From positions 26,024 to 90,023 of the forward strand of contig JADYZW010000035.1 in NCBI GenBank assembly GCA_020852955.1: a DNA stretch of 64,000 bases, in the 5' to 3' direction. A program made the translations under genes and the position numbers. Below, piece after piece: positions 6,310-34,145 of the stretch; the stretch's first letter is position 1; every line of letters starts with the position of its first letter. This stretch comes from Deltaproteobacteria bacterium (GTDB lineage Bacteria; Desulfobacterota; Binatia; UTPRO1). The notes under the pieces were generated by a model. It was not told the DNA's origin. It was given only the letters and a program-made list of their open reading frames with translations, and did not search any database.

Positions 6310-6423
6310 GCGCCGGCGCGTTGCATGCCAGGGCGCACGCGTTCTGCCGTCGGATCTCCGTCGGCGGAAAGACGTTGTGCCGCACCCCTCCAACCGATAG
6401 ATCTTTCGGCCGGAGGATCGTTC

Positions 6424-16456: not shown

Positions 16457-16654
16457 GCGCGTGGCTGCCTCATGGTGGACCCTACCTTTTAAGGGGCGCC
16501 CCACGGCGGTTCAACCGGGCCTCCCGGCCATCAGGCGCCAGTTTTCGTTTGACGCTGCCCGCACGGCGACGATAGCGTTTCCCGTCGGGGGTGGTGAGCG
16601 GTGGCGGTGGCGCTGAGGAAGAGCGGTCCGATACGGGACCCGTGCGAGCCCGTG

Positions 16655-18877
16655 ATGCGTCCGCACGGCGGCGGCTGGGCGTTGGCGCTCGGCGCGACGG
16701 CCCTCGGACTCCTGCTCGCGGGGCTCGTGTTCGCGGGCCCGGGCGATCTCGACCGGGGCTTCGGCGACGGCGGCGTGGCCACGACGGCGGTCGGCGGGGT
16801 GCCGAACACCGCCTACGCGCTGGTCGTTCGCCCCGACGGCACGATCCTGGTGGCCGGCACGACCGGCGCCGACATCGACCCGAACGACCTCGACGTGGCC
16901 CTCGTGCGCTACACGAGCGCCGGCGTCCTCGATCCGAGCTTCGGCACGGGCGGCATCGTCCGCACCTTCGGCCCGTTCGAGGACACGGCCCACGCGCTCG
17001 CCCTCGCTCCCGACGGAACGCTCGTCGCCGTCGGCGCGACGACCGACGGCACGACCGCCGACCAGCAGTTCGCGCTGTACCGCTATCGCGCCGACGGCGC
17101 GCTCGATGCGGCCTTCGGGACCGGCGGCCGCGTCGCCACGACCGTGAGCCCGGGCGACGACCACGCCGAGGCGGTGGCGGTCCAGCCCGACGGCCGCATC
17201 GTCGTGGCCGGCGCCACGGAGGGGCGCGGCGATTTCGCGGTCGCCCGCTACGAGGCCGACGGCGACCTCGACCCGACCTTCGGACGCGGCGGTACCGTCG
17301 CGACCGACGTCGCCGGCGGGAGCGACGTGGCGTACGCGGTCCTCGTCGAGCCCGACGGCGCGATCCTCGTCGCCGGCACGGCGCAGCTCGGAAGCGGCGG
17401 CGCGAACGCGTTCGCGCTCGTCCGCTACTACGCCGACGGCGAGCTCGACGCGGGTTTCGGCGACGGCGGCATCGTGGTTACGAGCTTCGGTCCGTTCGAC
17501 GAGGCGCGGGCACTCCTGCGCGACCCCGACGGCAGGCTCGTCGTCGCGGGATCCTCCTTCACCGGCGAGTCCTTCGAGTTCGCGCTCGCGCGCTACACGC
17601 CCGACGGCGCGCTCGACCCGGGCTTCGGCGACGGTGGACGCGTAACGACGCCGGTCGGCGCGGGGCGGTCGCTCGCGCGGCAGGCCAACGGCGCCTACGT
17701 CGTCGCCGGCGAGGGAGCGCGCGACGGCCTCCCGGCGGTCGTGCTCGCCCGCTACGCCGCGGACGGCGCGCTCGACCTCGGCTTCGGCGACGGCGGCGTG
17801 GTCGCCACCACCGGAGGACGCGCCGCCGCCGTCGCGGTCCAGCCCGATGACGATCTCCTCGTCGCCGGCACCACCGTGCTCGACGACTTCGTCGTCGCCC
17901 GCTACGAGGTCGGCGCCGTCCGGCGCTGCGCCGATGCCAATCGCGACGGCGCGATCAGTGTCACCGACGGCGTCCTCGTGCTGCGCGCCGCGGCCGCGCT
18001 GCCGAGCGAGTGCGCGGCGCTCGTCTGCGACCTCGACGGCAGCGGCGCCATGTCGGTGACCGACGGCGTCAACACGCTCCGGGCCGCCGCGGAGCTCGCC
18101 GCCACGATCGCGTGTCCGGTGCCCGCCGTCGACCTCGTCCGCGGCGTCGTCGGTCCGGACGGCGTCGCCGCCGCGCTCGCCGTCGAGCAACCGCCCGCTC
18201 CCGCCAGCGGCGCCGCGAGCGTCGTCACCAACCTCGCGGGCAACACCACCGCCGACACCGGCGCGACGGCGAGCGTCACCGCGTTCTTCGAGACCGACAC
18301 CGCCGCAGCCGCGGCCGCCGGCGACGCGGCGCTCGTGATCGCGACCCGGGTCGGCGGCGACCGCTGGACCGGGTACTGGCAGATGCCCCTCGCCGCCGAC
18401 GCGACCGAAGCGACCGTCCGGCTCCAGTATCCCTCGAGCTTCGCCGCCGAGACCTTCGACCTGCTCTTCGCCGTCCGCCGCGGCGGCGTGCTGAGCGCGT
18501 ACGCGAGCCTGACGCAGCGCACGCGCGTGGTCGGCACGCCGACGCGCACCGCGACCCCGCGTCCGACCGCGACGCCGAGCGCGAGCGCCACCCCGCAACC
18601 GCCGACGCCGACCAGCACCGGCTCGCCGGTGCGGACCGCGACGCCGACGCGCACCGCGACCGAGACCCCGACCCGCACGCCGACCCCGACGCGCACCCGC
18701 ACCGTCACGCCGACCCGCACGCCCACCGCGACCCGGACCGCGACCGCGACGCCGACCCGGACCGCCACGCCTTCCCGGACCCGCACGCCGACCCCGACCC
18801 GCACCCCGACCGCCACCCCGACCCGCACGCCGACCCCGACGCGCACCCGCACGCCGACTCCGACGCCGACCGTCTAG
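16655..18877 (+). CDS. secreted delta-60-repeat protein with tandem dockerin-like module and Pro/Thr-rich tail
   Basis: Signal peptide, then about eight repeats of the GxLDxxFGxGGxV pattern (delta-60 repeat). Next comes a tandem Ca-binding dockerin-like pair ([25 protein letters not shown] / [24 protein letters not shown]). The C-terminus is a 110-aa TPTRT low-complexity tail. Confidence 0.75.
18538..18874 (+). repeat. coding low-complexity repeat ([11 protein letters not shown] units)
   Basis: Degenerate 15-18 nt units (acccgcacgccgaccccgacgcgc...) encode the PT-rich C-terminal tail. The same unit recurs near 31935 and 60235 on the other strand. Confidence 0.8.
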
Positions 18878-19003
18878 GGAAGCCACACGGATCGCGTCCG
18901 AGCGAACAGGCCGAGCCGCCGCGAGCGCAAGGCGCGGGGCGCGGCCGCGAAGCGCCGCGGCCGTGGGCCCTGGTCCGGCACCTCACGGGCGATCGCGGGA
19001 ACC

Positions 19004-20830
19004 TCAGCCGCGGACGAGGCGCACGAGCCGGCGCTCACCGGCGGCGAGGTCGCGGAACACCAGGCGCAGGCCGCCGTCGGCGCCGCCCACCGCCACCACC
19101 GCCGGGGCCGCGCCTCGCACCGCTTCCACGGACCAGCCCGCGCTCGAATCCGCGAGGTAGACCACGACCCCGAGCTCGGGGGTCGCGGCGCCGCTCGCGA
19201 GCTCCACCGTCACCGCGCCGTCGCCCGCCCGGGCGACGCGCGTCGCCGCCCGCGACCGCGTCCGCCACCACGCCGCCACCTCGCCGACGGTCGCGAGCCA
19301 CACGCCGGGCAGGTTGCGGAGGCCCGTCAGGTGCCGGACCCCGGTGCGGATCGCCGGCGCGTTCCAGAACTGCGTATGGAAGTCGAAGAAGTAGAACCCT
19401 CCGACGCGTCGCACCTGCTCGAGGTCGCTCCGCATGGCGGCCCAGGACGCGCCGACATCCCTCCCGTCGCGTCGCACCACGTACTCGAAGTCGTCGTGCG
19501 GAACGCGCGGGAGCACCACGATCGCCTTGCCGCCGCTCTCGAGCACCCACGGCTCCGCACGGTCCTTGTCGCGCCAGCCGATGATCCAGTGGTAGCCGGT
19601 CGCAGCGAGCGCCGCGAGGGTATCGCCGTTCGTCCGCTCCTCCGGCGGCCGGAGACCGATCACGGTGCGGCCGGTGAGCGCCGCCAGGATCGCCCGGCTC
19701 TCGACGAGCTGGGCGCGCTGCTCGTCCTCGCTCTGCTCGTCGAGCGGCCGGTGGTCGTGGGTGTGCGACGCGATCTCGCTCGCCGCGGCGAGCGCGCGCA
19801 GCGTCTCGGGATGGTCGCCGGCGACCGTGGTGAGCACGAAGCTCGTGAAGGGCACGTTCGACGCGGCGAAGCGCGCGGCGATCGGCCCGCCGGCCGCGAA
19901 CTCGTGCTCGGCGTCGAGCCCGATGGCCGCGGCGGCGCGCGCCCCCCGCGGCCACGTCTCCAGGTCGCCGAGCGGACGCCCGCCGGCCCAGGCGAGCGCG
20001 TTCGCGACCAAGCGATCGACGCGCGCCGCCGCAGCGCCGCCGCCGACCACCGCTCCCGGCTCGAAGTTCAGCCACACCACTCGCCCGCGCCCGTGCACGG
20101 CGCGCGCCACGGCGGTCTGTGGCGCCGGCGCGGCCGGGTCGCGGGCGAGCATCGACCAGTCCACGAACTCGCCGACGGCCGCGTCGGTCGTGAGCGGCAG
20201 CGGCCGGTCGTAGGGCTGGATCTCGATCCGCGCGCCGGCCGGGATGCCGGCGGTGACGCTCGTCCGGCCGTGCAGAGCGACGTAGCGCGGCGCTTCGGCG
20301 GCGTCGGCCCCGGCGAGCGCGCGCACGCCGACGAGGGCGGCGAGCGGGGCATAGCCGCGCCACGCCCCGTCAGCGCCGTACAGGCCGTACGTCCAGGTCG
20401 CAACGAGGCCCGCGCCGCCCTCGACCGCCGCGGCGAGCCGCGCCACGGTGTCCTCGTGCAGCGCCGCGGCCGACGGCGCGACGACGACGGTCCCGGCCCC
20501 GAGCGCGCTCGCGAGCGCGGTTTCGTCGACCACGCTCGCCCGTCCGCCCGCGGCGTCGATCCGGCGGCGCCAGGCCTCGATGCGGCGATCGTACGCATCC
20601 GGATCGGCCCCCGGCACGTCCGCGAAGTGGCGCGCCGTCGCCTCGGCGCGCAGCAGCAGCACGGTCGGTCTCCCGCCGCCGTCCTCGGCGGTCGAGAGCG
20701 CGGGCGGCGGCAGCGCCGCGACGCCGTTCTCCTCCCCGCGTCCGCGCGTGATCAGGACGAACACCAGCACCGCCGAGGCCGCGACGGCGACCGTGAGCGC
20801 GACGGCGAAGAGCGCGCGCAAGCCCCGCAT
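19004..20830 (-). CDS. polysaccharide deacetylase (NodB-type) with N-terminal uncharacterised domain, membrane-anchored
   Basis: MRGLRALFAVALTVAVAAS anchor. A NodB domain lies in the C-terminal half (GLDAEHEF, HTHDHRP, RPPEERTNG). It is the last gene of the EPS operon. Confidence 0.75.
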   Translation of the reverse strand: MRGLRALFAVALTVAVAASAVLVFVLITRGRGEENGVAALPPPALSTAEDGGGRPTVLLLRAEATARHFADVPGADPDAYDRRIEAWRRRIDAAGGRASVVDETALASALGAGTVVVAPSAAALHEDTVARLAAAVEGGAGLVATWTYGLYGADGAWRGYAPLAALVGVRALAGADAAEAPRYVALHGRTSVTAGIPAGARIEIQPYDRPLPLTTDAAVGEFVDWSMLARDPAAPAPQTAVARAVHGRGRVVWLNFEPGAVVGGGAAAARVDRLVANALAWAGGRPLGDLETWPRGARAAAAIGLDAEHEFAAGGPIAARFAASNVPFTSFVLTTVAGDHPETLRALAAASEIASHTHDHRPLDEQSEDEQRAQLVESRAILAALTGRTVIGLRPPEERTNGDTLAALAATGYHWIIGWRDKDRAEPWVLESGGKAIVVLPRVPHDDFEYVVRRDGRDVGASWAAMRSDLEQVRRVGGFYFFDFHTQFWNAPAIRTGVRHLTGLRNLPGVWLATVGEVAAWWRTRSRAATRVARAGDGAVTVELASGAATPELGVVVYLADSSAGWSVEAVRGAAPAVVAVGGADGGLRLVFRDLAAGERRLVRLVRG

Positions 20831-20838
20831 CCGCCGCC

Positions 20839-21039
20839 TCAGCTCCGGGGAGCGAGCGATGCGCCCGGCGCGTCGGGGAGGCCGAGGCGCACGAAGAATA
20901 CCTTGCGCGCCGGGTCCTGCGCCGCGCGCGGCTGCCGCTTCTCCCGCACCCGGAACGCCAGATACGACAGCACGCCGAGCACGAGCGTCGACAGCGTCGC
21001 GATCAGCACGATGGTTGCGAGAATCGGTACGAGGTCCAT
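20839..21039 (-). CDS. small single-TM membrane protein (IcaD/PgaD-position analogue)
   Basis: 66-aa ORF with one hydrophobic helix (LVPILATIVLIATLSTLVLGVLSYLAF) and a basic tail. It is wedged between the GT2 and deacetylase genes with 8- and 33-nt gaps. Confidence 0.4.
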   Translation of the reverse strand: MDLVPILATIVLIATLSTLVLGVLSYLAFRVREKRQPRAAQDPARKVFFVRLGLPDAPGASLAPRS

Positions 21040-21072
21040 GCGTCCTTCTCTCCCGGCGAACGGTGCCCCCGG

Positions 21073-22401
21073 CTAGCCCGACAGGCGTCCGAGGCGCTCG
21101 AGCTTTCCCCATCCCATGCGCACGCCGGCGATCTCCTCGAAGGTGGCGAGCACTTTGCAGATGTCGATCAGGAGGATGTAGCTCATGCGGTAGACGATCG
21201 AGTACGGCACGAGCCGCAGATCCTCCTTCTCCGCGGCGGCGCTGAAGAGCGCGCCGATCGCGTCGAGCAGCGTCAGCTGCAACCACCAGAGCGCCAGCAG
21301 CCGCGTCGTCCCGTAGCGCACCGCGACCAGCAGGAAGAACGCGTTCGCGAAGACGTTCATCGCCGGCCACAGGACCGCCTCGAACATCATGTAGGCGATC
21401 GTCACGCGCGTCCCGAGGCGCGGCCCGGAGGCGACGAGGAGGCCGACGTGCCGGCGCAGCGCCTGCAGGATGCCGCGCGTCCAGCGGTAGCGCTGCTTGA
21501 GGAGCGCCGGCAGCCGCTCGGGCGCTTCGGTGTACGCGATCGCGCGCGGCTCGTACTTGATCTTCCAGCCTTCTCCCAGGAGCTGGAGCGTCAGGTCGCA
21601 GTCCTCCGCGAAGGTGGCGGTCGAGTATCCCCCGGCCGCCAGCACGGCGTCCCGGCGGAAGATCCCGAGCGGTCCGGGCACGATATTGACGGTGCGGAAG
21701 AACGCCTGCGCGCTCCGCATCAGGTTCAGGCCCTCGACGTACTCGAGCGCCTGCAGCCAGGTGAGCAGATTGCGGCGGTTCACCACTTTCACGTTGCCCG
21801 CGACCGCGACGACGTGGGGATCGGCGAAGTGCCGCATCCCGGCGCGCAGGCTCATCGGCGCCACGTGGGAGTCCCCGTCCACGCACATCACGAACGCGCC
21901 GCGCGCCTCGCGGAGGCCTCGGTTCAACGCCGCCGCCTTGCCGCCGTTCGACTGCGAGACGACCCGCACCTCGACGCCGCGCGTCCGTTGCGCCTCGTCG
22001 CAGGCGCGCCCGTAGGTGTCGTCGGTCGAGCCGTCGTCCACGACGACGATCTCGAGGTTCGGGTAGTCGAGCGCGGCGAGCGAACGGATCGAGCTCTCGA
22101 TGCAGACGGACTCGTTGAACGCCGGCACCAGCACCGAGACCAGCGGCGCCGCGGGATCGACCTCGGGATCGCCCAGACTCTCGAGGTGCCCGAGGAACGC
22201 GAACCACAGCATGACGAAGTAGCGAACGATCAGGAGCACGAGGAAGCAGAGCAGGGCCGACACCGAGAGGCTGACGATCGCGTTGTCGATCGCGTAGTCC
22301 TCGCGCAGCACGGAGACGTAGAGCGCGATCGCGCCGATCACCACGCCGACGCACGCCGTCACGAAGAGCAGCGGGAACATCCCGGGACGCTGCCGGCTCA
22401 T
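21073..22401 (-). CDS. processive family-2 glycosyltransferase (PgaC/IcaA-like poly-beta-1,6-GlcNAc synthase type)
   Basis: 442 aa. It has N-terminal TMs, the DDGS(TDDT) and DGD motifs and QRYRW (QxxRW). Its start overlaps the stop of the upstream TPR/porin gene by 4 nt. Confidence 0.85.
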   Translation of the reverse strand: MSRQRPGMFPLLFVTACVGVVIGAIALYVSVLREDYAIDNAIVSLSVSALLCFLVLLIVRYFVMLWFAFLGHLESLGDPEVDPAAPLVSVLVPAFNESVCIESSIRSLAALDYPNLEIVVVDDGSTDDTYGRACDEAQRTRGVEVRVVSQSNGGKAAALNRGLREARGAFVMCVDGDSHVAPMSLRAGMRHFADPHVVAVAGNVKVVNRRNLLTWLQALEYVEGLNLMRSAQAFFRTVNIVPGPLGIFRRDAVLAAGGYSTATFAEDCDLTLQLLGEGWKIKYEPRAIAYTEAPERLPALLKQRYRWTRGILQALRRHVGLLVASGPRLGTRVTIAYMMFEAVLWPAMNVFANAFFLLVAVRYGTTRLLALWWLQLTLLDAIGALFSAAAEKEDLRLVPYSIVYRMSYILLIDICKVLATFEEIAGVRMGWGKLERLGRLSG

Positions 22402-24563
22402 GAGGCCCCGAAGCGGTACCGGACCGCGATCGTCCCGCTGTGGGCGACGTAGCCGCCGCCGTTCCCGCCGCCGACGCTGCCGACGCGGCCGGTCTCTCCG
22501 TACCGGTACCCGAGCTCGGCGGTGAGACCGGCGACCTCGGCGAGCGCGAGGCCGACGCCGACGCTGCGCTCGAGCGAGCCCTGCCCCTCCTCCTGCCCGT
22601 ACCCCACGCGCGCGTCGAGCTGGAGCGTCACGCTGGGCGCGATCTCCTGCCGGACGATCGCGCTCAGCCCCTGCGTCAGATAGCGCGCCGGGTCCCAGTA
22701 GAGATCGCTGCGCTCCGCGTAGTCGAGATAGCCGGCATCGGCCTTCACGGTGACGCCCGGCTTCCGCAGCACCCGGCGTGCGAGCGACGCCTGCAGCGCG
22801 ACGAGGCGATTGCCGTCGCTGTACCCGGAGACGCTGCCGGCGCCGGCGAGCTCGAGACGTCCCGGCAGCACGTGCCGCCCCTGCGCGCGGAGGCGATGGC
22901 CGCTCAGCACGCGCCGATCGGCCGACGCGACCGTGAGCACCTCGTCGATCAGGTCGTAGTGGTCGTAGGCGACGCCGACCTGGCTCTCCGGCCCCAGCAC
23001 GCGCGTCAGCTCGACGGTCGCGCCGTGGGTCGTCCGGTCCTCGTCGTAGACCGTCGGCGCCCAGACCGCGCCGAGCCGCCAGCGATCGTCGAGGTCGCGC
23101 AGCAGGCTGAAGCGCCCGCGGTCGGCGCGGAGCTTCACGCCGTGCTGCGCGTAGTCGGTATGGACGATCGCGGCCCCGACCTCGGTGGCGAGCCCGTGGC
23201 GCTGCCGTGCCTCGACCGTCACGCGCCGCTGCCGGAAGCCGTCGGAGTCCTGCACCGCGCCGAAGGTCGGCAGGCCCTCGGCGACGCCGCTCTCCGCGGC
23301 GAGGGCCTGCGCCGCCGCTCGCGCGTCCTCGTCGTCGCCGCCGAGCCGCACCGCCGCCCGATAGTGGCGACCCGCCGCCGCGCGCGCGCCGCCCCAGCGA
23401 TAGACGTCGCCGAGCATGCGCTCGGCGCGGCCCGGCGCGGCGCCGCGCGCCGCCGCGATCTCGCGGGCGCTCTCGGCGAGCTGCCCGTCCCAGGCGAGCA
23501 CGCTCGCGCGCTCGAGCCGGAGCTCGAGATCGGACGGCGCGGCGCCGACCAGCTCCTCGTAGACGCCGAGCGCGCGTCCGTAGCGTCCGGCCCAGGAGAG
23601 CGTGCGGGCGAGCTGTCGCCGCGTCGTCGCGTCGTCGGGGCGGCGGCGGAGCTGTGCGTCATAGAGCGTGATCGCCGCGTCGAAGTCGCCCTGCTCCGCG
23701 AGCGCCGCGGCGAGCGCCGTCCGCGCCTCGCCGTCCTCCGGGCGGGCCGCGAGCGCCGCACGCGCGGCGGCGACGCGCGCGGCGTTGCGTGCCGCGCGTT
23801 CCGCGCGCAGCGTCGCTGCGCGGCCCCGGAAGCGGCGGTCGCCCGGCCAGCGCCGGCGGGCATCCGCGAGCAGCGTGTCGGCGAGGGCGAACTGCTCGGC
23901 GGCCGCCGCCGCGTCGACGGCGACGGCCCAGCGCCCGGCGTCCTCGGGATGCGCCCGCCGCTCGGCGTCGGCCGCGAGCGCGCGGTGCGCGGGCGAAGCG
24001 AGGAGCGCGGCGAGCGCCTGCCGGGCGTCGGAACGCTGAGGATCGGCCGCGAGCGCGGCCCGCAGGGCGCGCTCCGCATCGCCGAGCCGCCCGCTCCATT
24101 GCAGGGCGAGTCCGAGCCCGAGGAACGCGCCGGCGTCGCCGGCGTCGGCGGCGACGAGCGCCTCGTACTCCGCGATCGCGGGCACGAGCGCGCCGCGCCA
24201 GGCCCGGACGTCGGCGCGCGCCTTGTGGAGGGCCCGGCGATCAGTGCCGGTGCCGCCGCCCGCGAGCAGCCGATCGTACTCGGCCTCCGCGCCGGCCAGA
24301 TCGCCGGCCTCACTCAACAAGCGGGCGAGCTCGACGCGGACGGCGCGGTCGCCGGCATGCGGCGCGAGCCACGCGCGATAGAGGGCGACCGCATCCGGCA
24401 GCCGCCGCGCCAGGTAGCAGGCGCTCGCGCGCGCCAGGGTGGTCGCGCGGTCGCGGAGCGGCGGCCGCGGATCGCAGGGCTCGCCCGCGAGCGCGGGGGA
24501 ACGCCAGGAGAGGAGCGCCAGGACGACCGCCGTCCCGACGCGCCGTCGGATCGAAGCGCGCAT
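22398..24563 (-). CDS. TPR-repeat outer-membrane polysaccharide export protein (PgaA/BcsC/PelB-like)
   Basis: Signal peptide, then about 400 aa of TPR-like Ala/Leu/Arg-rich repeats. The roughly 290-aa C-terminal region alternates amphipathic beta-strand patterns consistent with a porin barrel. Confidence 0.6.
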   Translation of the reverse strand: MRASIRRRVGTAVVLALLSWRSPALAGEPCDPRPPLRDRATTLARASACYLARRLPDAVALYRAWLAPHAGDRAVRVELARLLSEAGDLAGAEAEYDRLLAGGGTGTDRRALHKARADVRAWRGALVPAIAEYEALVAADAGDAGAFLGLGLALQWSGRLGDAERALRAALAADPQRSDARQALAALLASPAHRALAADAERRAHPEDAGRWAVAVDAAAAAEQFALADTLLADARRRWPGDRRFRGRAATLRAERAARNAARVAAARAALAARPEDGEARTALAAALAEQGDFDAAITLYDAQLRRRPDDATTRRQLARTLSWAGRYGRALGVYEELVGAAPSDLELRLERASVLAWDGQLAESAREIAAARGAAPGRAERMLGDVYRWGGARAAAGRHYRAAVRLGGDDEDARAAAQALAAESGVAEGLPTFGAVQDSDGFRQRRVTVEARQRHGLATEVGAAIVHTDYAQHGVKLRADRGRFSLLRDLDDRWRLGAVWAPTVYDEDRTTHGATVELTRVLGPESQVGVAYDHYDLIDEVLTVASADRRVLSGHRLRAQGRHVLPGRLELAGAGSVSGYSDGNRLVALQASLARRVLRKPGVTVKADAGYLDYAERSDLYWDPARYLTQGLSAIVRQEIAPSVTLQLDARVGYGQEEGQGSLERSVGVGLALAEVAGLTAELGYRYGETGRVGSVGGGNGGGYVAHSGTIAVRYRFGAS

Positions 24564-24572
24564 CTCCCGATC

Positions 24573-26243
24573 TCAGGCGACGACCTGCTTCGCCGCCCCC
24601 TCCTCCCGCCCGAGCGCGCGCGCCAGGTTCTCCAGCAGCTCGTCGATCGTGGCCCCGTCGGTCGAATAAGCGGCGGTCGCGGCGCGGAAGCCTACGAGCG
24701 TCCGTCCGACGCCCCGGCCGCGCCCCGCGAGCCAGTCCTGCAGGCGGGCCGCGAGCGCCGCGACGTCGTCCGCGCTCGCGCCGAGCGCCACGACCGCGAT
24801 CTCGGTCGCGTGCAGCCAGCAGAGGATCTCCTGTCCGGCGAGGACCTCCGGGAAGTCCTGCGGCGTGAGGGCGACCGGACCGGCCGCGATCACCTCGCCA
24901 TTCGCCTCGAACCCGAAGCGGGCGACGAGGAGCGCGCAGCGTTCGGTCGCCTTCAATGCGGCGGCGACGCAGTCCCGCAGGAACAGCGCGAACGGATCCC
25001 GCAGGCGGAGCGCTCCGCCGGCCGTGGCCACGAGCCCGGTGACCTCGTCCTCGGCGCTCGCCATCTCGACCGCGATGTGGCGGCGCAGCTCCTCGAGCTC
25101 ATCGTATACGTGCGGCGCCGCCTCGGGGTCGACGGTCACGAGCCCGGTGCCGAACGCGATGCGAAACGGTCGGCCTTCCGTCGGCGCCGTCACGCCGTGC
25201 ATGCGCTCGAGCTTGAGCGTGCCCGTCTGCCGGCCGTTCGTCTCCGAGCCGAGGATGAGCGTCCCGAACGACGCGCGCTTGAGGTAGGCGTTGGCGAGCT
25301 CCTCCTGCGGCGTCACGGGGTCGTCGGAGAGGACGAGCGTGGTCGCGCCGGTGCGCTCGAGCCCGTCGACGAGATCCGTCATGAGGGGCGCCGACAGCAC
25401 CAGCCGCGGCGCCGAGCAGAGGATGGTCAGGACCGAGTTGATGACGATGCGCGTCGCCCGGCACTCGGCAGCGTAGCTCGCGATCTCGGCGGCGAGCGCG
25501 ACGACGTCGTTGCGCGTCTCGAGCGCGTACTCGAAGCGCTCGGCGAGCCCCACGACCACGAGCTTCCCCGACCGTATGTGCGGCCGGAGATCGAGACCGA
25601 CGCTGCTGCCGACGTAGAGCACCGTGTCGACCCGCTCGGTCGTCACGAGCACCGCGCCGTCGCCGCGCTCGAGCGCGCGGTGCAGGAACTGGACGGCGAA
25701 GACCCCCTTCGCCCCGCCGCCCGCGCCCTGCCCGAGATAGACGCGGCCGCGGCAGAGACCGCCGACCTGCTCGTCGAGCGGCGCGATGCCGGTCGGCTCG
25801 AAGTCGAGCGGTCGCGGACCCTCGGCGGTCGGCGCCGCCCGCGGCGTGACGGCCCGGACGCGACGGAGCTCGGCATAGCGGCGCAGGGTGCCGCTCACGG
25901 TCGCGAGGAGCTGCTTCGCCGTGAACGGCTTCACGAGATAGTGCTCGACGCCGAGCCGATTGCCGCGCTCGAGGCTGGTCGCATCGCCGAGCGCCGACAG
26001 GAAGATGACCGGCACCGCGAGGAGCCGCGGATCCTCGCGCATGCGCTCCAGCAGGCGGTAGCCGTCGACCTCGGGCATCATGATGTCCGACACGACGAGG
26101 TCCGGGACGACGCTCTGCAGCTCCGCGAGCGCGCTGACGCCGGAATCGGCGGCGCTCACCTGGTAGCCCTCGCGCTCGAGAATGCGCGAGGCGAGGAGCC
26201 TCACCTCATCGGAATCGTCGACGACCAGGATGTGGGGACGCAT
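24573..26243 (-). CDS. response regulator with KaiC/RecA-like (pseudo)ATPase domain and GGDEF-like C-terminal domain
   Basis: REC domain (ILVVDDSDEV...VVSDIMMPEVDG...LVKPF). A KaiC-like domain follows whose Walker A is GQGAGGGAKG, lacking the Ser/Thr after Lys. The C-terminal region contains a degenerate RFGFEANGE, compared with the canonical RYGGEEF. It lies 9 nt upstream of the exporter gene. Confidence 0.75.
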   Translation of the reverse strand: MRPHILVVDDSDEVRLLASRILEREGYQVSAADSGVSALAELQSVVPDLVVSDIMMPEVDGYRLLERMREDPRLLAVPVIFLSALGDATSLERGNRLGVEHYLVKPFTAKQLLATVSGTLRRYAELRRVRAVTPRAAPTAEGPRPLDFEPTGIAPLDEQVGGLCRGRVYLGQGAGGGAKGVFAVQFLHRALERGDGAVLVTTERVDTVLYVGSSVGLDLRPHIRSGKLVVVGLAERFEYALETRNDVVALAAEIASYAAECRATRIVINSVLTILCSAPRLVLSAPLMTDLVDGLERTGATTLVLSDDPVTPQEELANAYLKRASFGTLILGSETNGRQTGTLKLERMHGVTAPTEGRPFRIAFGTGLVTVDPEAAPHVYDELEELRRHIAVEMASAEDEVTGLVATAGGALRLRDPFALFLRDCVAAALKATERCALLVARFGFEANGEVIAAGPVALTPQDFPEVLAGQEILCWLHATEIAVVALGASADDVAALAARLQDWLAGRGRGVGRTLVGFRAATAAYSTDGATIDELLENLARALGREEGAAKQVVA

Positions 26244-26389
26244 GCACGCTCCTCTCCGCCGGCTGTATCGACACTCGCCGTCCCATCCTTGAGAAACCCG
26301 CGATCCGCCGTCGCGCACGCGCCACCCGGCATGCGACCTCGCACGCGATCGCTTGACAGGCGCCGGGCGGCAGGCGCGAATGCGCGCCC

Positions 26390-26947
26390 ATGGTCGTCGT
26401 CGTCTACGGGTACGAGGGATCCGGCGAGGGGCACTGGCAGCGCTGGGCGGCCGCGATGCTCGCGGCGCGCGGCGTCCGCGTCGCCTTTCCGGAGCTCTCG
26501 TCGCCCGCCGCGCCCCGCAAGGCCGTCTGGGTCGCGGAACTCGCCGCCGTGCTCGACGACGCGCGCCGGCGCCGCGACCCCGTGACGTTCCTCTGCCATT
26601 CGCTCGGGTGCTGGGCGGTCGACCACCTCCTGACCGAGCACGGCAGCGCGGGCGTCCACGCGGCCCTCCTCGTCGCCCCGCCCTCGCCGTTCCTCGTCTT
26701 CGAGCCCGTCGACAGCTTCCTGCCGCCGCCGCGCCGCGCCGACGTGTGGGCGCCGATCGCCGCGCGGACGCTGCTCGTCGGCAGCGACGACGACGACTAC
26801 GCCGGCCCGGACGAGTTCGCGGAGGTCGCTCGCGAGCTCGGCGTCGCGTCTCGCATCATCCCCGGCGCCGGCCACATCAACATCGCCGCCGGGTACGGTC
26901 CGTGGCCGTTCGTGCTCGAGTGGGCCGCCGAGGCCGGCGCGCGCTGA
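26390..26947 (+). CDS. alpha/beta hydrolase, RBBP9/YdeN-like serine hydrolase
   Basis: 185 aa with the nucleophile elbow CHSLGC and a His near the C-terminus (GAGHINIA). It is divergent from the EPS operon. Confidence 0.7.
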   Translation: MVVVVYGYEGSGEGHWQRWAAAMLAARGVRVAFPELSSPAAPRKAVWVAELAAVLDDARRRRDPVTFLCHSLGCWAVDHLLTEHGSAGVHAALLVAPPSPFLVFEPVDSFLPPPRRADVWAPIAARTLLVGSDDDDYAGPDEFAEVARELGVASRIIPGAGHINIAAGYGPWPFVLEWAAEAGAR

Positions 26948-26968: not shown

Positions 26969-28015
26969 TCACCCCCTGCCGCGGGGGGTCGGGACCGGAT
27001 GCGAGGCGCGCGACGGCGGCTCGGAGCCGCATGCCGGCGTCCCGGGCTGCAACCCCGGGATCCGCTCCCGGTCGATCACCGCGAACAGCTCGTTCGGCCG
27101 CGCGAACGAGCGGAATAGCCCGTCCATGACGGCCGCCTGCGTGCGATGAGTCGCGAGCGCGGCGAGCTTCGTGCGCACCTGGGACGGGTCGAGGGGTAGC
27201 GAGAACCACCGCCCCGGCGCGAAGAGCGCCGCCGGCTCCGGCAACGGCCCCGGGGCCTCGGGCGGCGGAGGCCAGCCCCGCGCCGTGTGCACCAGGTACG
27301 TCAGCAGGCGATCGGGCATCCTGCCGGCGCCGCCCGGCTCGACGGCGAGCGACTTCAGCGCCGCGAGCACGAAGGTGAAGGTCGCGCAGTGGTCGGGGTG
27401 GTGGTCGAGCGGCGTCGGCAGCACGATCCAGTCCGGATCGGCGAGCGCCACCACGCGCGCGATCAGGTGGACCAGGTCGCGGCTCAGGTAGCGCGCCCCC
27501 GCCTCCCACGCGTGCGGATACGGCGGAGTGTCCTCGCGGGTGTAGGGCGACTCGTAGGGGGGGACGTGGGGCCCGCGCCGCCAGATCTCGGCGAGGCCGC
27601 CGTCGGGAAAGCCGAGGAACGTGACCGACAGGGGCAGCACGCGGTAGTGCTCGAGCGCGACGAGCGCCTCCGCGCGCCGCAGCTCGCCGACGCCGCGATA
27701 GTCGCTCGCCGACGGCTCGCGATGCCCCGTCGCCGCCTCGACGGCCTCCGGGTAGCCGTCGCCGTTCGTCACGAAGAGCACGTGGACGCGCCCGCCGGCG
27801 GCGACCACCTGCTGCATCAGCCCCCCGGCCCCGAGCGACTCGTCGTCGGGATGCGGCGCCACCACCAGCACGCGGACGCGCGGCGGGACGACGAGCGTCT
27901 CGGCCGCGCGCGCCGCGGGAACGGCGAACCGCGCGAGCACGGCCGCGAGCGCGGCGGCCGCCGCGCGGCGACGGAAGGCGGGAGGCAGTCCGAGCACGAC
28001 CGACCCTCGTAGCAC
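26969..28015 (-). CDS. PIG-L/LmbE family N-acetylglucosaminyl deacetylase, secreted
   Basis: HPDDES and HHPDH motifs. A predicted signal peptide (RRRAAAAALAAVLARFAVPAARAAE) is present. The upstream ATG at 28111 would overlap the divergent oxidoreductase start by 2 nt, so a GTG start near 28015 or 27997 is preferred. This start is not certain. Confidence 0.65.
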   Translation of the reverse strand: MLRGSVVLGLPPAFRRRAAAAALAAVLARFAVPAARAAETLVVPPRVRVLVVAPHPDDESLGAGGLMQQVVAAGGRVHVLFVTNGDGYPEAVEAATGHREPSASDYRGVGELRRAEALVALEHYRVLPLSVTFLGFPDGGLAEIWRRGPHVPPYESPYTREDTPPYPHAWEAGARYLSRDLVHLIARVVALADPDWIVLPTPLDHHPDHCATFTFVLAALKSLAVEPGGAGRMPDRLLTYLVHTARGWPPPPEAPGPLPEPAALFAPGRWFSLPLDPSQVRTKLAALATHRTQAAVMDGLFRSFARPNELFAVIDRERIPGLQPGTPACGSEPPSRASHPVPTPRGRG

Positions 28016-28109
28016 CGCGCCGCCGACCCGGCCACCATCGCGGCGCGCGGCGCGCCTTCCCGCCCCGGGCGTCGCCGTGCTAGGCCGCCGGGAAGAAAGG
28101 GGAGTCGCC

Positions 28110-30350
28110 ATGCCGACCACGACGAGCCTCCTCACCTGCCCGCTCTGCGAAGCGACCTGCGGCCTCAGCGTCACGACGAACGGCCGGACGGTCGAGGACA
28201 TCCGCGGCGATCGCGCCGACGTCTTCAGCGCCGGCTATCTCTGTCCGAAGGCCTACGCGATGAAGGAGCTCGAAGCCGATCCGGACCGCCTGCGGACGCC
28301 GCTCGTCCGCCGCGCCGGCCGCCTCGTCCCCGCGACCTGGGACGAGGCCTGGGAGGAGGTCGAGCGCGGCCTCGGCGCGGTGCTGCGCGACCACGGACGC
28401 GACGCCGTCGCGGTCTACCTCGGCAACCCGAACGCCCACCACCTCTCCGGGCTCTACGCGCCCGCGCTCATCAAGGCGATCGGCACGCGCAACGTCTACT
28501 CCGCGAGCACCCTCGACCAGATGCCGAAGCAGGTGTCCGCTGGCCTCATGTTCGGCGGCGCGCTTTCGATCCCGGTTCCCGACCTGGACCGCACCGACCA
28601 CCTCCTGGTCCTCGGCGCCAACCCCCTCGCCTCGAACGGCAGCTTGATGACCGCGCCCGACGTGAAGGGGCGCCTGCGGGCCCTGCGCGCGCGCGGCGGC
28701 ACGCTGGTCGTGGTCGATCCCCGCCGGAGCCTGACCGCGCTCGACGCGGACGCGCACCATTGCATCCGTCCGGGGACCGACGCCCACCTGCTCTTCGCGC
28801 TCGTTCATGTGCTCGTCGCCGAGGGCCGCGTCGCGCTCGGCCGCCTCGCCGAGCACGCGGCCGGACTCGCCGAGGTCGAGCGCCTCGCCCGTCCGTTCAC
28901 GCCCGAGGCGGTCGCGAACGTCACCGGCCTCGACGCCGCCGCCATCCGCGGCCTCGCGCGCGATCTCGCGCGGGCGCGCCGGGCCGCCGTCTACGGCCGC
29001 ATCGGCACCTGCACCCAGGAGTTCGGTACGCTCGCGAGCTGGCTCGTCGACGTCCTGAACGTCCTCACGGGCAACCTCGACCGCGAGGGCGGCGCCATGT
29101 TCCCGAAGGCGGCCGCCGGCGCCAAGAACACGACCGGCGCCCCGGGCGTCGGCCGCGGCGTCCGCTTCGGGCGCTTCGCGAGCCGCGTGCGCGGGCTGCC
29201 GGAGGTGTACGGCGAGCTCCCGACGTCGGTGCTCGCCGAGGAGATCGACACCCCCGGCGACGGCCGGATTCGCGGGCTCGTCACGGTCGCCGGCAATCCC
29301 GTCCTGAGCGCGCCGAACGCGGGCCGCCTGCGCGCCGCGCTCGCCACGCTCGACTTCATGGTGAGCGTCGACATCTACCTGAACGAGACCACCCGCCACG
29401 CCCACGTCGTCCTCCCGGCCCCGTCCGCGTTCGAGCGCTCGCACTACGACGTCGCGCTCTACCAGCTGGCCGTGCGGAACGTCGCCCACTACTCGGCGCC
29501 CGTGTTCCCGGTCTCCGACGGCATGCGCGACGAATGGCAGATCCTGCTCACGCTCGGCGCCATCGCGAGCGGCCTGGGCCGCGGCGCCGACGTCGCCGCG
29601 CTCGACGATTTCCTCGTGCACCAGGTGGTCGCACGCGAGGTGGAGACCCCGGGCTCGCCCGTCGAAGGCCGCGACCCCGCCGAGCTGATCGCGGCGCTCG
29701 GCGCGCGCCGGGGGCCGGATCGCGTGCTCGACTTCCTGCTGCGCAGCGGCCCGTACGGCGACGCCTTCGGCCGTCGCGAAGGCGGCGTGAGCCTCGATCT
29801 GCTGGAGCGCCATCCGCATGGCGTCGATCTCGGCCCCCTCCGGCCGCGCATCCCGGAGGTCCTCCGTACTCCGAGCGGCAAGATCGAGCTCGCGCCGCCC
29901 CCGCTGGTCGCCGACGTCGCGCGCCTCGCGGCCACGCTCGACCGCGCGCCCGCGCCGCTCGTGCTCGTCGGCCGGCGCACGCTCCGCTCCAACAACTCGT
30001 GGATGCACAACCTCGACGTCCTCGTGAAGGGCCGCCCGGCGTGCACCCTGCACGTGCATCCCGACGACGCCCGCCGCCTCGGCCTCGCCGACGGCGGCGC
30101 GGCGCGCGTGCGCTCGCGCGTCGGCGCGCTCGAGCTCCCGGTCGAGGTGACCGACGGCATCATGCGGGGCGTGGTGAGCATTCCGCACGGCTGGGGCCAC
30201 GACGACCCCGCGAGCGCCCTCCGCGTGGCCGCGGCGCACGCCGGCGCCAACGCGAATCTGCTGGCGGACGACGCGGCGATCGATCCGCTCTCGGGTAACG
30301 CCGTCCTGAGCGGCATTCCGGTCGCGGTGGAACCGGTGCCGCCCGCATAG
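28110..30350 (+). CDS. molybdopterin-dependent oxidoreductase (BisC/NasA/FdhF-like, monomeric)
   Basis: N-terminal 4Fe-4S motif CPLCEATCG...C. Several MopB molybdopterin-binding domains span about 746 aa. The MPTTTSLLTCPLCEATCG start is typical of this family. Confidence 0.85.
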   Translation: MPTTTSLLTCPLCEATCGLSVTTNGRTVEDIRGDRADVFSAGYLCPKAYAMKELEADPDRLRTPLVRRAGRLVPATWDEAWEEVERGLGAVLRDHGRDAVAVYLGNPNAHHLSGLYAPALIKAIGTRNVYSASTLDQMPKQVSAGLMFGGALSIPVPDLDRTDHLLVLGANPLASNGSLMTAPDVKGRLRALRARGGTLVVVDPRRSLTALDADAHHCIRPGTDAHLLFALVHVLVAEGRVALGRLAEHAAGLAEVERLARPFTPEAVANVTGLDAAAIRGLARDLARARRAAVYGRIGTCTQEFGTLASWLVDVLNVLTGNLDREGGAMFPKAAAGAKNTTGAPGVGRGVRFGRFASRVRGLPEVYGELPTSVLAEEIDTPGDGRIRGLVTVAGNPVLSAPNAGRLRAALATLDFMVSVDIYLNETTRHAHVVLPAPSAFERSHYDVALYQLAVRNVAHYSAPVFPVSDGMRDEWQILLTLGAIASGLGRGADVAALDDFLVHQVVAREVETPGSPVEGRDPAELIAALGARRGPDRVLDFLLRSGPYGDAFGRREGGVSLDLLERHPHGVDLGPLRPRIPEVLRTPSGKIELAPPPLVADVARLAATLDRAPAPLVLVGRRTLRSNNSWMHNLDVLVKGRPACTLHVHPDDARRLGLADGGAARVRSRVGALELPVEVTDGIMRGVVSIPHGWGHDDPASALRVAAAHAGANANLLADDAAIDPLSGNAVLSGIPVAVEPVPPA

Positions 30351-33300: not shown

Positions 33301-33982
33301 CGCCCGCCGTGAAGTCGCAGACGCCGCCGGTCCCGGCGTTCTGGCCGGAGAGGTTGATGTCGCCGCCGATCGTGATGCTCCCGTCCTGGGCGACGACGTC
33401 GAGCTCGCCGCCGTCGGTGAAGCGGTCCCCGAGATCCGCGAAGCTGCTCATGCCGGGCCCGTCGATCACCGCACCGGGCTGCAGCACGACGTCCTCGGCC
33501 GCCACCAGGCGGATGGTGCCGGCCGAGTCGCCGGCCACGTCGATGTTGCCGTCGATGTCGATGGTGCCGGTGCTGGCAAGCGACACGACGCCGCCGCCGA
33601 TGATGAATCCGTTCGGCTTCACGAAATCGCCCCGCGCCTTCAGCTTGCCGGTCGACGTGATCGTGATGTCGCCCGCGTTGATCACCCGGATGAAGCCGAG
33701 CCCCGTCATCTGGAAGGTCTTCTCGATGCTGAGGGCGCGCCCGCCGAGATCGAACTCGCACCCGCCAGCCGTGACCTCGATCGCCGTGGTCATGCGGACC
33801 AGCGTCGCGGAGCACACCCCCGTTCCGCAGAGCACGTTCGTCGTGTTGGCGAGGGCGTCGACCCCGCAGGTCCGGGCGACCGCGGACGCGCGGGTCGGCG
33901 CGGCGAGGATCGCGGCCGCGACGGCGGCGAGCAGCAACAGCGCGGGACGCCCGGACGACCGGGGCTCGTGGTTGGGATTCAC
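30383..33982 (-). CDS. giant secreted/cell-surface protein (Gly-rich beta-helix repeats, Myxococcus Cys-rich repeats, tandem KCY domains)
   Basis: Predicted signal peptide ([27 protein letters not shown]), with a GTG start chosen at VNPNHE. There are about 600 aa of GGxGGDGG-type repeats, a [18 protein letters not shown] Cys-rich repeat, a PT-rich linker, and two roughly 105-aa repeats (DHYKCYK..., DRFKCYT..., ...HCYKIRQ). Further CGDGF...EQCDDGG / CGNGV...EECDNG repeats and a C-terminal domain follow. Confidence 0.7.
31935..32170 (-). repeat. coding Pro/Thr-rich low-complexity repeat (TPT/TRT units)
   Basis: Encodes [22 protein letters not shown]...[26 protein letters not shown] on the minus strand. 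It is the same family as 18538..18874. Confidence 0.7.
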
Positions 33983-34145
33983 GACATGCGCTCCTTCCAG
34001 ATAACGCGAAGACTCCGATGCAGAGAGGCCGGAACGCGGATTATGCGGGCAGGGCAAATCCCCGGTCAAATGGAAATCTTCGGCGGCCGCGGCGGCTTGA
34101 GCGGCCGGGGCGCGGCGCGTATGAGCGGTAGCGCGAGGCGGCACC

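Follow-up and report, generated by a model that had tools for sequence, protein, structure and literature searches.

A conserved five-gene locus predicted to encode synthase-dependent secretion of a partly de-N-acetylated exopolysaccharide

Organization of the locus

The stretch of DNA analyzed here (the window) is 64,000 nt long, and all coordinates are given on its numbering. A run of five genes, all on the minus strand, extends from 26243 to 19004 and encodes in operon order a regulator, an outer-membrane export candidate, a family-2 glycosyltransferase (GT2), a small membrane peptide and a polysaccharide deacetylase (Table 1). The junctions between them are 9, -4, 33 and 8 nt, and the stop of the exporter gene overlaps the start of the GT2 gene by 4 nt. 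The original prediction had described five tightly spaced genes with gaps of 33 nt or less and this overlap, and all of them were present as described. SD-like purine-rich sequences were found upstream of the regulator, peptide and deacetylase genes, and the GC3 was 0.88-0.95 in every called frame of the locus. The Pfam scan that the prediction had proposed supported the TPR, GT2 and CE4 assignments, as well as REC and KaiC domains. Three other long ORFs, 19004..22354 (-), 22440..26585 (+) and 16511..18886 (-), were rejected as high-GC artefacts.

Table 1. Genes, domains and flanking features of the locus
Feature	Position	Strand	Remark
Ser_hydrolase gene	26390..26947	+	divergent flank of the operon
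Presumed operon promoter region	26244..26389	-	146-nt intergenic region between divergent genes
Regulator gene, 556 aa (REC, degenerate KaiC-like NTPase, degenerate GGDEF)	24573..26243	-	
REC domain, residues ~4-120	25884..26234	-	canonical phospho-acceptor residues
KaiC/RecA-like P-loop NTPase domain, residues ~150-370	25134..25796	-	degenerate Walker motifs
Degenerate GGDEF-like domain, residues ~400-545	24609..25046	-	profile, AF2 model
Outer-membrane export candidate, 721 aa	22398..24563	-	signal peptide, TPR region, C-terminal OMP-like domain
Putative beta-barrel, ~290 aa, residues 430-721	22401..23276	-	amphipathic segments, weak PgaA_barrel match
Processive GT2, PgaC/IcaA-like synthase, 442 aa	21073..22401	-	Pfam, NCBIfam, motifs
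Single-pass membrane peptide, 66 aa	20839..21039	-	GC3 0.88; GGGAGAGAAGGA upstream
Membrane-anchored periplasmic polysaccharide deacetylase, 608 aa	19004..20830	-	AF2 model, Pfam
ThuA/class-I-glutamine-amidotransferase-like (GH42 trimerisation-like) domain, residues ~56-290	19961..20665	-	
CE4 (NodB-type) catalytic domain, residues ~298-526	19253..19939	-	
C-terminal beta-sandwich domain of the deacetylase, residues ~528-608	19007..19249	-	
Delta-60-repeat protein gene	16601..18877	+	convergent flank of the operon

Conservation of the gene order

About 30 loci whose flanks are unrelated have the same five-gene order (L001, L002, L004, L007, L008, L009, L015, L016, L018 and others). They come from assemblies of Binatia-like bacteria, Terriglobia, Thermoanaerobaculia, Gemmatimonadota and Rhodothermaceae. 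The five genes could instead be chance neighbors or be transcribed independently, with the 66-aa ORF not being a real gene. Many spurious ORFs do arise from the high GC, and a search of the operon for promoter and terminator consensus sequences was negative. However, the order and tight spacing repeat across phyla while the flanks differ, and the peptide gene has a coding GC3, an SD-like sequence and homologs in 1171 clusters, which makes this reading extremely improbable. The arrangement of the five genes is not chance. Because no sigma-70-like match was found in the intergenic region upstream of the regulator gene, the operon promoter placed there is presumptive.

Judging from the sequenced assemblies, the operon is conserved over several phyla of mostly uncultured bacteria, and is widespread and uncharacterized. 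Among relatives that carry a label, the closest are MAGs under the names Binatia, Deltaproteobacteria, Polyangiaceae or Thermodesulfobacteriota. The suggested role in a fruiting-body matrix found no support.

The regulator has the domain set of BcsE

The N-terminal REC domain of the regulator (Pfam, 93.6 bits) has the features of a two-component receiver: all 14 relatives share D10, D53 and K105, with Ser or Thr at position ~83. In the second domain, Walker A reads GQGAGGGAKG, with the Lys changed to Q or A in two relatives, and in 14/14 relatives N, S, A, T, V or G takes the place of the Walker B Asp, so that these motifs do not match those of a functional KaiC/RecA-like ATPase (PF06745). No Pfam GGDEF match was found in the regulator. 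A profile of the C-terminal domain matched GGDEF structures (4yme, E = 1.9e-4; 4urq/4urg; 8wcn; LapD 3pjw), and the GGDEF motif aligned to 'pgela'. The order of secondary structure elements in the AF2 model also fits GGDEF, and the domain is GGDEF-like by fold. The motif itself is replaced by HATEI, which does not correspond to an active diguanylate cyclase, and the I-site position reads AGQE.

In sister clades the regulators are arranged as KaiC-REC-degenerate GGDEF with RxxD at the I-site position, their KaiC and REC domains score above the Pfam cut-offs, and a weak PelD_GGDEF match was observed. The regulators of L004, L021, L025 and L029 have the BcsE domain order with REYD or REGD at the I-site position, and the Walker motifs look intact in the sister-clade regulators of L004, L025 and L029.

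BcsE, the cellulose regulator, consists of degenerate RecA/KaiC-like NTPase, REC and GGDEF domains, the last with RxxD, and it is recruited via beta-strand complementation by BcsF, a single-pass peptide of 63 aa that docks with its cytosolic tail onto the BcsE NTPase sheet (PMC7439463, PMC11470070). The regulator of the window unites the three BcsE folds in one protein, and in the sister clades their order is identical, including RxxD. It is also co-encoded with a single-pass peptide (55-74 aa in its family) that has a conserved cytosolic tail and matches BcsF in size and topology. The likeness is architectural, since the regulator showed no sequence similarity to E. coli BcsE (hhalign probability 0.2%) and the peptide none of significance to BcsF by family HMM (0.8 bits, a score reached by 220 of 2000 shuffles). 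The two systems differ in that the REC domain of the window regulator is N-terminal, giving a permuted order, and looks phosphorylatable, whereas its I-site has been lost. It is partnered with a PgaC-like synthase and not with BcsA, and BcsR, BcsQ and BcsB are absent. The "unusual response regulator" of the original prediction thus does carry a receiver, but as part of a three-domain, architecturally BcsE-like protein.

The synthase is closest to PgaC and IcaA

The GT2 (Pfam Glyco_tranf_2_3, 114 bits) has the motifs DDGS122, DGD175, ED266 and QRYRW303 and five TM segments in a 2+3 arrangement (5-34, 36-73, 342-361, 368-386 and 409-427), as expected of a processive membrane GT2. Its best NCBIfam family was PgaC_IcaA with 193 bits, compared to 109 for NodC (E = 2.5e-31) and 80 for CelA, and Chitin_synth_2 and NodC were the next HexNAc-type matches. 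PgaC of E. coli shares 34% identity with the protein over 235 aa (E = 2e-40), and in a BLASTP comparison PgaC (3e-39) was far ahead of BcsA (2e-15) and NfrB (5e-4). These scores support the original expectation that the synthase would group with PgaC/IcaA and not with cellulose or hyaluronan synthases; it is much closer to PgaC/IcaA than to either of these or to NfrB. The PgaC_IcaA score (TIGR03937 equivalog, 193.3 bits, E = 6.5e-57) is nevertheless below the cut-off of 422.3 bits, and the GT2 of the sister-clade locus L034 scored 216 bits. By these profile scores, the GT2 is a synthase closest to PgaC/IcaA but outside the curated equivalog.

The export candidate, the peptide and the deacetylase

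The exporter gene is present in all complete loci. The N-terminus of the protein, MRASIRRRVGTAVVLALLSWRSPALAG, resembles a signal peptide, and several TPR families of Pfam match residues ~129-340. At least 10 alternating amphipathic segments were found in the C-terminal domain, and the relatives terminate in ...KVF. The sole Pfam family on this domain was PgaA_barrel, a weak match of 13.3 bits against a cut-off of 27, which was also seen weakly in 3/6 relatives (best E = 0.0014). The C-terminal domain had no match among PDB sequences and profiles and no significant hhalign similarity to the PgaA barrel, and the PgaA model TIGR03939 matched the TPR region only (22 bits, cut-off 367).

The peptide has one hydrophobic segment and a conserved cytosolic tail motif, SYLAFRxRExRxP ... 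FFxR. Its gene came after the GT2 gene in every locus examined, and immediately so in each of the six loci sampled via members of the peptide family. The peptides are ~40-55% identical across loci where the deacetylase is only ~26-30% identical. PgaD, the two-TM partner of PgaC, has ~137 aa, and IcaD has two TM segments and ~100 aa; the peptide gave no significant alignment with E. coli PgaD and does not belong to that family. Its own family, with 1171 clusters, is large, undescribed and unannotated, and has neither a Pfam entry nor a name.

The deacetylase was modeled with AF2 (pLDDT 87.7, pTM 0.88) as a TM anchor, a ThuA-like domain, the CE4 domain and a beta-sandwich. A profile search retrieved 524 representatives at E<=1e-30, mostly of 580-650 aa and matched over their full length. 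The CE4 domain (Pfam Polysacc_deac_1, 59 bits) retains the catalytic motifs of a metal-dependent de-N-acetylase, i.e., D-(x)-D/E, H-[ST]-x-x-H, R-P-P, D..[WFY] and the acid His; a lack of the catalytic Asp/His residues, which would have counted against the original prediction, was not found. The prediction had further called for a structural model of an unassigned N-terminal domain of ~300 aa; this domain is instead ~235 aa long and can be assigned as ThuA/GATase1/GH42M-like. As it had also proposed, the protein is unlike PgaB, with which it shares only the CE4 fold; no GH153 domain was found, placing the deacetylase outside the PgaB family. In the larger sister clade, the metal-binding His residues are missing from the CE4-like proteins, and therefore the conserved role of the protein may not be deacetylation.

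Nature of the polymer

On these family comparisons, the locus encodes a synthase-dependent exopolysaccharide system, and no component scored high enough for a curated pga family. The cut-offs were missed by the GT2 (193 of 422 bits) and by the exporter (22 of 367 bits). The polymer is probably a poly-HexNAc. The original prediction of a PNAG-like, partly deacetylated polymer holds as far as the synthase-dependent exopolysaccharide locus is concerned, whereas the beta-1,6 PNAG linkage is an assumption, and sister clades carry a GH18.

One possibility is a very divergent pgaABCD/icaADBC-type system making beta-1,6-PNAG, in which the first gene would encode just an ordinary regulator, while the peptide would correspond to PgaD/IcaD and the deacetylase to PgaB/IcaB. 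The synthase-dependent layout, a TPR and putative barrel outer-membrane protein, a CE4 deacetylase, a small inner-membrane partner and a GT2 with QxxRW and 2+3 TM segments are all shared with E. coli pgaABCD. PgaC is the nearest characterized synthase and PgaC_IcaA the top curated family, also for L034, and PgaA_barrel is the only OMP family to match the exporter C-domain. The order of synthase, small TM peptide and deacetylase parallels icaA-icaD-icaB, as originally noted, and divergent environmental pga layouts without detectable pgaB or pgaD have been described (PMC7112194). Against this, every curated pga cut-off was missed widely, and the gene order differs from that of pgaABCD. The deacetylase is TM-anchored, with a ThuA-like N-domain and a beta-sandwich, and has neither a GH153 hydrolase domain nor similarity to PgaB; the peptide, with its single TM segment, bears no sequence relation to PgaD. 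The operon also encodes a cytosolic regulator, and a c-di-GMP site of the PgaCD type cannot be asserted for this locus. The likeness to staphylococcal icaADBC is confined to the order and the PgaC_IcaA model: the cassette has no IcaC-type membrane protein by Pfam, and it includes a regulator as well as an outer-membrane exporter. Moreover, sister clades whose GT2s are ~50% identical to that of the window have a GH18 and not a PNAG hydrolase. We therefore consider a divergent pga system possible but rather improbable.

The GH18 and the dead CE4 paralogs of the sister clades are hints of beta-1,4 chemistry, and a chitin- or chitosan-like beta-1,4-GlcNAc/GlcN exopolysaccharide would make the GT2 an extended NodC/chitin synthase and the CE4 a NodB/chitin deacetylase. 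However, NodC scored 109 bits against 193 for PgaC_IcaA, and tblastn found no GH18 in the 64-kb window. YaaH/YdhD-like GH18s can be peptidoglycan hydrolases, and therefore the GH18 may aid passage through the cell wall rather than trim the polymer. This alternative is similarly doubtful.

The pairing of a GT2 HexNAc synthase with a NodB-fold CE4, together with the NodC match, is also shared with rhizobial NodC-NodB, and the products could be short Nod-factor-like chito-oligosaccharide signals or a lipid-linked glycan with no exported polymer. NodC makes short oligomers and NodB is small and cytosolic, whereas the CE4 here is predicted to be periplasmic, membrane-anchored and multidomain, and the cassette conserves a TPR and OMP-like exporter. 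The GT2 has the 2+3 TM topology of a channel-type synthase with QxxRW, and no acyltransferase or NodA-like gene was found by Pfam. Such a function is very unlikely. Pseudomonas Pel is different again, with a GT4 polymerase (PelF, with PelG/PelE) and not a GT2 synthase, a GH166 hydrolase domain in PelA and a membrane-bound PelD with a GAF domain.

Proposed mechanism

We favor, with a probability of roughly 0.7, a single operon for the synthase-dependent secretion of a partly de-N-acetylated poly-N-acetylhexosamine exopolysaccharide, most likely GlcNAc-based. It would join a PgaC-like synthase to unusual partners, namely a BcsE-like regulator, an undescribed peptide and a membrane-anchored deacetylase with an extra domain. 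A dedicated glycoside hydrolase, found in most synthase-dependent systems, is missing from the window clade, which speaks against this reading. By analogy with its family, the multi-TM GT2 would polymerize UDP-HexNAc and move the chain over the inner membrane. The peptide, which appears to co-evolve with the GT2, may be an obligate synthase partner with a function like that of PgaD/IcaD, and may in addition tether the regulator as BcsF does BcsE. The TM-anchored periplasmic deacetylase would strip some N-acetyl groups at its CE4 site, its ThuA-like and beta-sandwich domains possibly holding or guiding the chain, and the TPR and putative beta-barrel protein would conduct the polymer through the periplasm and outer membrane.

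The cytosolic regulator, architecturally equivalent to BcsE, may act as a post-translational on/off switch of the synthase. Since it has a canonical REC domain but has lost both its RxxD I-site and its Walker B Asp, its input in the window clade would most likely be phosphorylation of D53 by a histidine kinase unlinked to the operon. Near the operon, within the window, neither a histidine kinase nor a diguanylate cyclase gene was found. In the sister clades with the KaiC-REC-degenerate GGDEF order and RxxD, the input would more likely be c-di-GMP and/or ATP.

Gene layout of the cassette

The GC content of the window is about 70-77%, and mechanical ORF lists are therefore rich in artefacts. Genes in the window were picked by third-position GC (GC3), and five minus-strand genes were found, for a regulator, a TPR/outer-membrane-protein-like exporter, a GT2 synthase, a small peptide and a deacetylase. 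The four junctions measure 9, -4, 33 and 8 nt, and Shine-Dalgarno-like purine runs lie 5' of the regulator, peptide and deacetylase genes. The length of the deacetylase agrees with the public annotation of an identical protein (P0001). The block is bordered upstream by a divergent Ser_hydrolase gene and downstream by a convergent gene for a secreted delta-60-repeat protein with a Pro/Thr-rich tail. Hence, the GC3 gene calls, the tight junctions and the bordering genes confirmed the five-gene block of the original prediction. An ORF at 16511..18886(-) was considered as a sixth operon gene and rejected by GC3 as an antisense artefact of 16601..18877(+). A promoter and terminator consensus scan of 18700-26500 gave no match, a scan that is uninformative at 74% genome GC.

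Features of the cassette and its surroundings in the window
Feature	Coordinates	Strand	Length	Remarks
Regulator gene	26243..24573	-	556 aa	GC3
TPR/OMP-like protein gene	24563..22398	-	721 aa	GC3
GT2 gene	22401..21073	-	442 aa	GC3
Peptide gene	21039..20839	-	66 aa	GC3
Deacetylase gene	20830..19004	-	608 aa	GC3
Delta-60-repeat protein gene	16601-18877	+	758 aa	secreted; six delta-60 repeats (TIGR02608, 288 bits)
PIG-L family gene	26969-28201	-		GlcNAc-type de-N-acetylase family
Large repeat protein gene	30383-34606	-	1407 aa	DUF7450 repeats; myxobacterial-type cysteine-rich acidic repeat (TIGR02232)

Synthase and peptide

The GT2 carries the motifs DDGS, DGD, ED and QRYRW, with two hydrophobic segments at the N-terminus and three at the C-terminus, and by sequence this layout is of the processive membrane synthase type. 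The best curated family was PgaC_IcaA at 193 bits, far below the 422-bit equivalog cut-off, and the protein fell outside the PgaC/IcaA family; the MftF, NodC and cellulose synthase models scored lower still. Among E. coli proteins, PgaC (34% over 235 aa) was far nearer than BcsA or NfrB. Since PgaC_IcaA was the best family and PgaC the nearest protein, the GT2 would not group with the cellulose or hyaluronan synthases.

The peptide gene follows the GT2 gene in all loci examined, and peptide identity is about 40-55% where deacetylase identity is only 26-30%. The family consensus is M[DE]L[IV]P[IL]L.T..L.AT..T....SY.A[FY]RARE.R.P ... FF.R[YL]. No sequence relation between the peptide and PgaD was found by BLASTP. 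Our inference is that the synthase depends on the peptide as an obligate partner. In a Rhodothermaceae locus, L010, a long C-terminal tail, acidic and of low complexity, brings the peptide homologue (6845-7390) to about 181 aa; the GT2 of this locus has an extra N-terminal extension of about 100 aa, and two CE4-like paralogs stand in tandem.

Deacetylase and predicted polymer

The AlphaFold model of the deacetylase is confident (pLDDT 87.7, pTM 0.88) and has four parts, namely a predicted transmembrane helix at the N-terminus, a ThuA/GATase1-like domain, a CE4 domain and a predicted beta-sandwich at the C-terminus. The CE4 motifs (D-x-E, H-T-x-D-H, R-P-P, DD[FY]E and the acid His) are kept in the window protein and its clade, so that the catalytic Asp and His residues are present. 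The relatives include sister clades with a KaiC-REC-GGDEF* regulator (the asterisk marks a degenerate domain), and in the larger of these the His-x-x-x-His motif is lost in both CE4-like paralogs. Since this motif is lost there, the conserved role of the CE4-like protein may be to bind or guide the polymer, with deacetylation retained in the window clade.

Because the nearest families of the GT2 are all HexNAc synthases and the CE4 domain is of the active type, the predicted product of the cassette is a poly-HexNAc with part of its N-acetyl groups removed, in the simplest case one of GlcNAc. A beta-1,6 linkage, as in the PNAG-like polymer of the original prediction, would agree with PgaC/IcaA being the nearest family to the GT2. 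GH18 enzymes cut beta-1,4 bonds next to GlcNAc, and a beta-1,4 linkage would agree with a periplasmic GH18 encoded directly after the CE4-like gene in ten sister-clade loci. This GH18 keeps LDFE, and its nearest matches are a probable chitinase and YdhD/YaaH, although the YdhD/YaaH-type subfamily also holds peptidoglycan hydrolases and the window clade is without a GH18. The GH18 loci (L021-L025, L027-L029, L034 and L037; for example L034 10062-11165) belong to the larger sister clade, and the gene is flanked there by two convergent CE4-like paralogs without the metal-binding His motif (pseudo-deacetylases). For the polymer, a role in biofilm or matrix is plausible, whereas the fruiting-body role that had also been suggested found no support.

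Exporter

The exporter has a signal-peptide-like N-terminus, TPRs and a C-terminal domain of 290 aa with many alternating amphipathic segments. The only Pfam family touched by this domain, and weakly, was PgaA_barrel. The relatives end in ...KVF, a typical ending, and the motif Y[WFY][DSN]P is reminiscent of YYNP in PgaA. Sequence and profile searches of the exporter against the PDB returned TPR matches only, the C-terminal domain gave only one marginal match there (Opa60), and hhalign gave no match between this domain and the PgaA barrel of E. coli. The likeliest reading of the C-terminal domain is a candidate outer-membrane barrel. In locus L035, a 166-aa ORF upstream of the GT2 gene (6139-6639) resembles no more than the final stretch of the barrel in the exporters of other loci, with a terminal ...KVF; this locus is without the exporter TPR part and the regulator, and may be decayed or rearranged.

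Regulator

The window regulator is a three-domain protein (REC-KaiC*-GGDEF*). Its receiver is canonical, with D10, D53 and K105 invariant. The C-terminal domain is a degenerate GGDEF in which GGDEF has become HATEI, recognisable by profile and fold only; profile matches to GGDEF structures reached E 1.9e-4, and the top Foldseek match was PleD. The invariant RLRD413-416 was considered as a c-di-GMP I-site and rejected, as it falls where the GGDEF fold begins (DxLT-type), off the I-site position. In the sister clades a KaiC domain with intact Walker motifs comes first, followed by REC and GGDEF*, and the spacing of REYD or REGD from the GGDEF position is that of a canonical I-site.

The three folds are the same set as in BcsE, a regulator of cellulose synthesis with the architecture NTPase*-REC*-GGDEF* and a c-di-GMP-binding RxxD (PMC7439463, PMC11470070). 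BcsE is kept at the membrane by BcsF, a 63-aa single-pass peptide that extends the NTPase* sheet by a strand of its tail (PMC7439463, PMC11470070). Comparison of the regulators with E. coli BcsE by hhalign and BLASTP gave no sequence similarity, and the peptide-family HMM matched BcsF no better than shuffles. Since no similarity to BcsE or BcsF was detected, the relation would be one of architecture, and of function by analogy, and we claim no homology. The regulator would switch the synthase post-translationally. In the window clade, its ATPase and I-site features would have been lost and a phosphorylatable receiver gained at the N-terminus. The surroundings of the operon encode no kinase. 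The Gemmatimonadota have an additional stand-alone REC gene after the cassette. In two Terriglobia-type loci (L034 758-1828 and L029 ~19841-20737), a 356-aa membrane protein is encoded directly upstream of the KaiC-REC-GGDEF* regulator; the two proteins are 65% identical, have no Pfam or NCBIfam match, and by eye resemble class III nucleotidyl cyclases in the C-terminal half.

Distribution and relation to known systems

Relatives were gathered through the deacetylase, through scans of species-representative genomes and metagenomes, and through the peptide. The order of KaiC-like regulator, TPR protein, GT2, peptide and CE4-like protein of about 600 aa was repeated in most sufficiently long loci, with flanks unrelated between loci, and was broken in L037, L038 and L039. 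In the variant L039 (165-9265), the KaiC-like gene runs divergently, the cassette has insertions of LytR_cpsA_psr and NAGPA-family genes, and the place of the CE4-like protein after the peptide is taken by a 348-aa protein without a Pfam match. The labelled close relatives include MAGs named Binatia, Deltaproteobacteria, Polyangiaceae and Thermodesulfobacteriota; further sources are labelled Gemmatimonadota, Rhodothermaceae, Thermoanaerobaculia and Terriglobia, the last a dominant soil group. The deacetylase profile matched 524 representatives at E<=1e-30 among 1.84 billion searched, and the best 150 of the 524 were nearly all 580-650 aa and aligned end to end. There are at least 524 deacetylase-like clusters at 50% identity and 1171 peptide clusters (55-74 aa, none with a Pfam domain or a meaningful name); the cassette, as predicted from these profiles, is common in environmental bacteria, Terriglobia included.

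To our knowledge, few synthase-dependent polysaccharide secretion systems are understood, namely cellulose, alginate, PNAG, Pel and Nfr. The predicted proteins indicate that the locus works like these systems, with pga/ica the nearest by virtue of the synthase; to this extent the ica/pga-like identity originally predicted stands, but the GT2, deacetylase and peptide fell outside the pga families tested, and the exporter touched PgaA_barrel only weakly. When the exporter, deacetylase and peptide were compared by BLASTP with PgaA, PgaB, PgaD, BcsC, NfrA and YbcH, no significant match other than TPRs appeared. The core of the cassette is PgaC-like, whereas all accessory proteins are unlike those of known systems, and features that are separate in Pga, Pel and type II Bcs are combined here. 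Literature searches on KaiC with synthase-dependent EPS, on Binatia EPS and on BcsE-like and BcsF-like proteins turned up no account of the cassette; the nearest text comments in general terms on divergent pga layouts from the environment (PMC7112194).

We tentatively propose the following reading, at a probability of about one in four for the whole. The cassette would represent a new widespread family of synthase-dependent EPS systems in Acidobacteriota, Binatia-like bacteria, Gemmatimonadota and Rhodothermaceae. It would secrete a chitin/chitosan-like beta-1,4 polymer, not PNAG, with a synthase that needs a new micro-protein of 55-74 aa and with an ancestral BcsE-like KaiC-REC-GGDEF* gate, whose c-di-GMP/ATP input was swapped for phosphorylation in the window clade. 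If confirmed, the cassette would bring a new machine for matrix polymers to phyla that are poorly studied, would assign a function to the many unannotated micro-proteins of the peptide family, and would extend BcsE-type NTPase*-REC-GGDEF* regulators beyond enterobacterial cellulose systems. One synthase under c-di-GMP-type control in some clades and under phosphorylation-type control in another would also offer a natural comparison. It would then be possible to test directly whether a chitosan-like polymer is secreted by bacteria in this way. The cassette is widespread and well worth taking to experiment, and the mechanism set out here is a proposed one.

Neighbouring genes

The PIG-L family gene has the strand of the operon and stands two genes upstream of the cassette; it is syntenic in a close relative (L001) and absent from distant cassettes. 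Because its listed start overlaps the divergent gene of a molybdopterin oxidoreductase (28077..30350), translation probably begins further downstream (the L001 protein has 345 aa). The delta-60-repeat protein contains two dockerin-like 'DxNxDGxxSVTDGV' segments and a tail of about 130 aa of Pro/Thr-rich repeats (TPTRTPTP...). Large secreted repeat proteins such as this one and the 1407-aa protein are typical of 'delta-proteobacterial' lineages.
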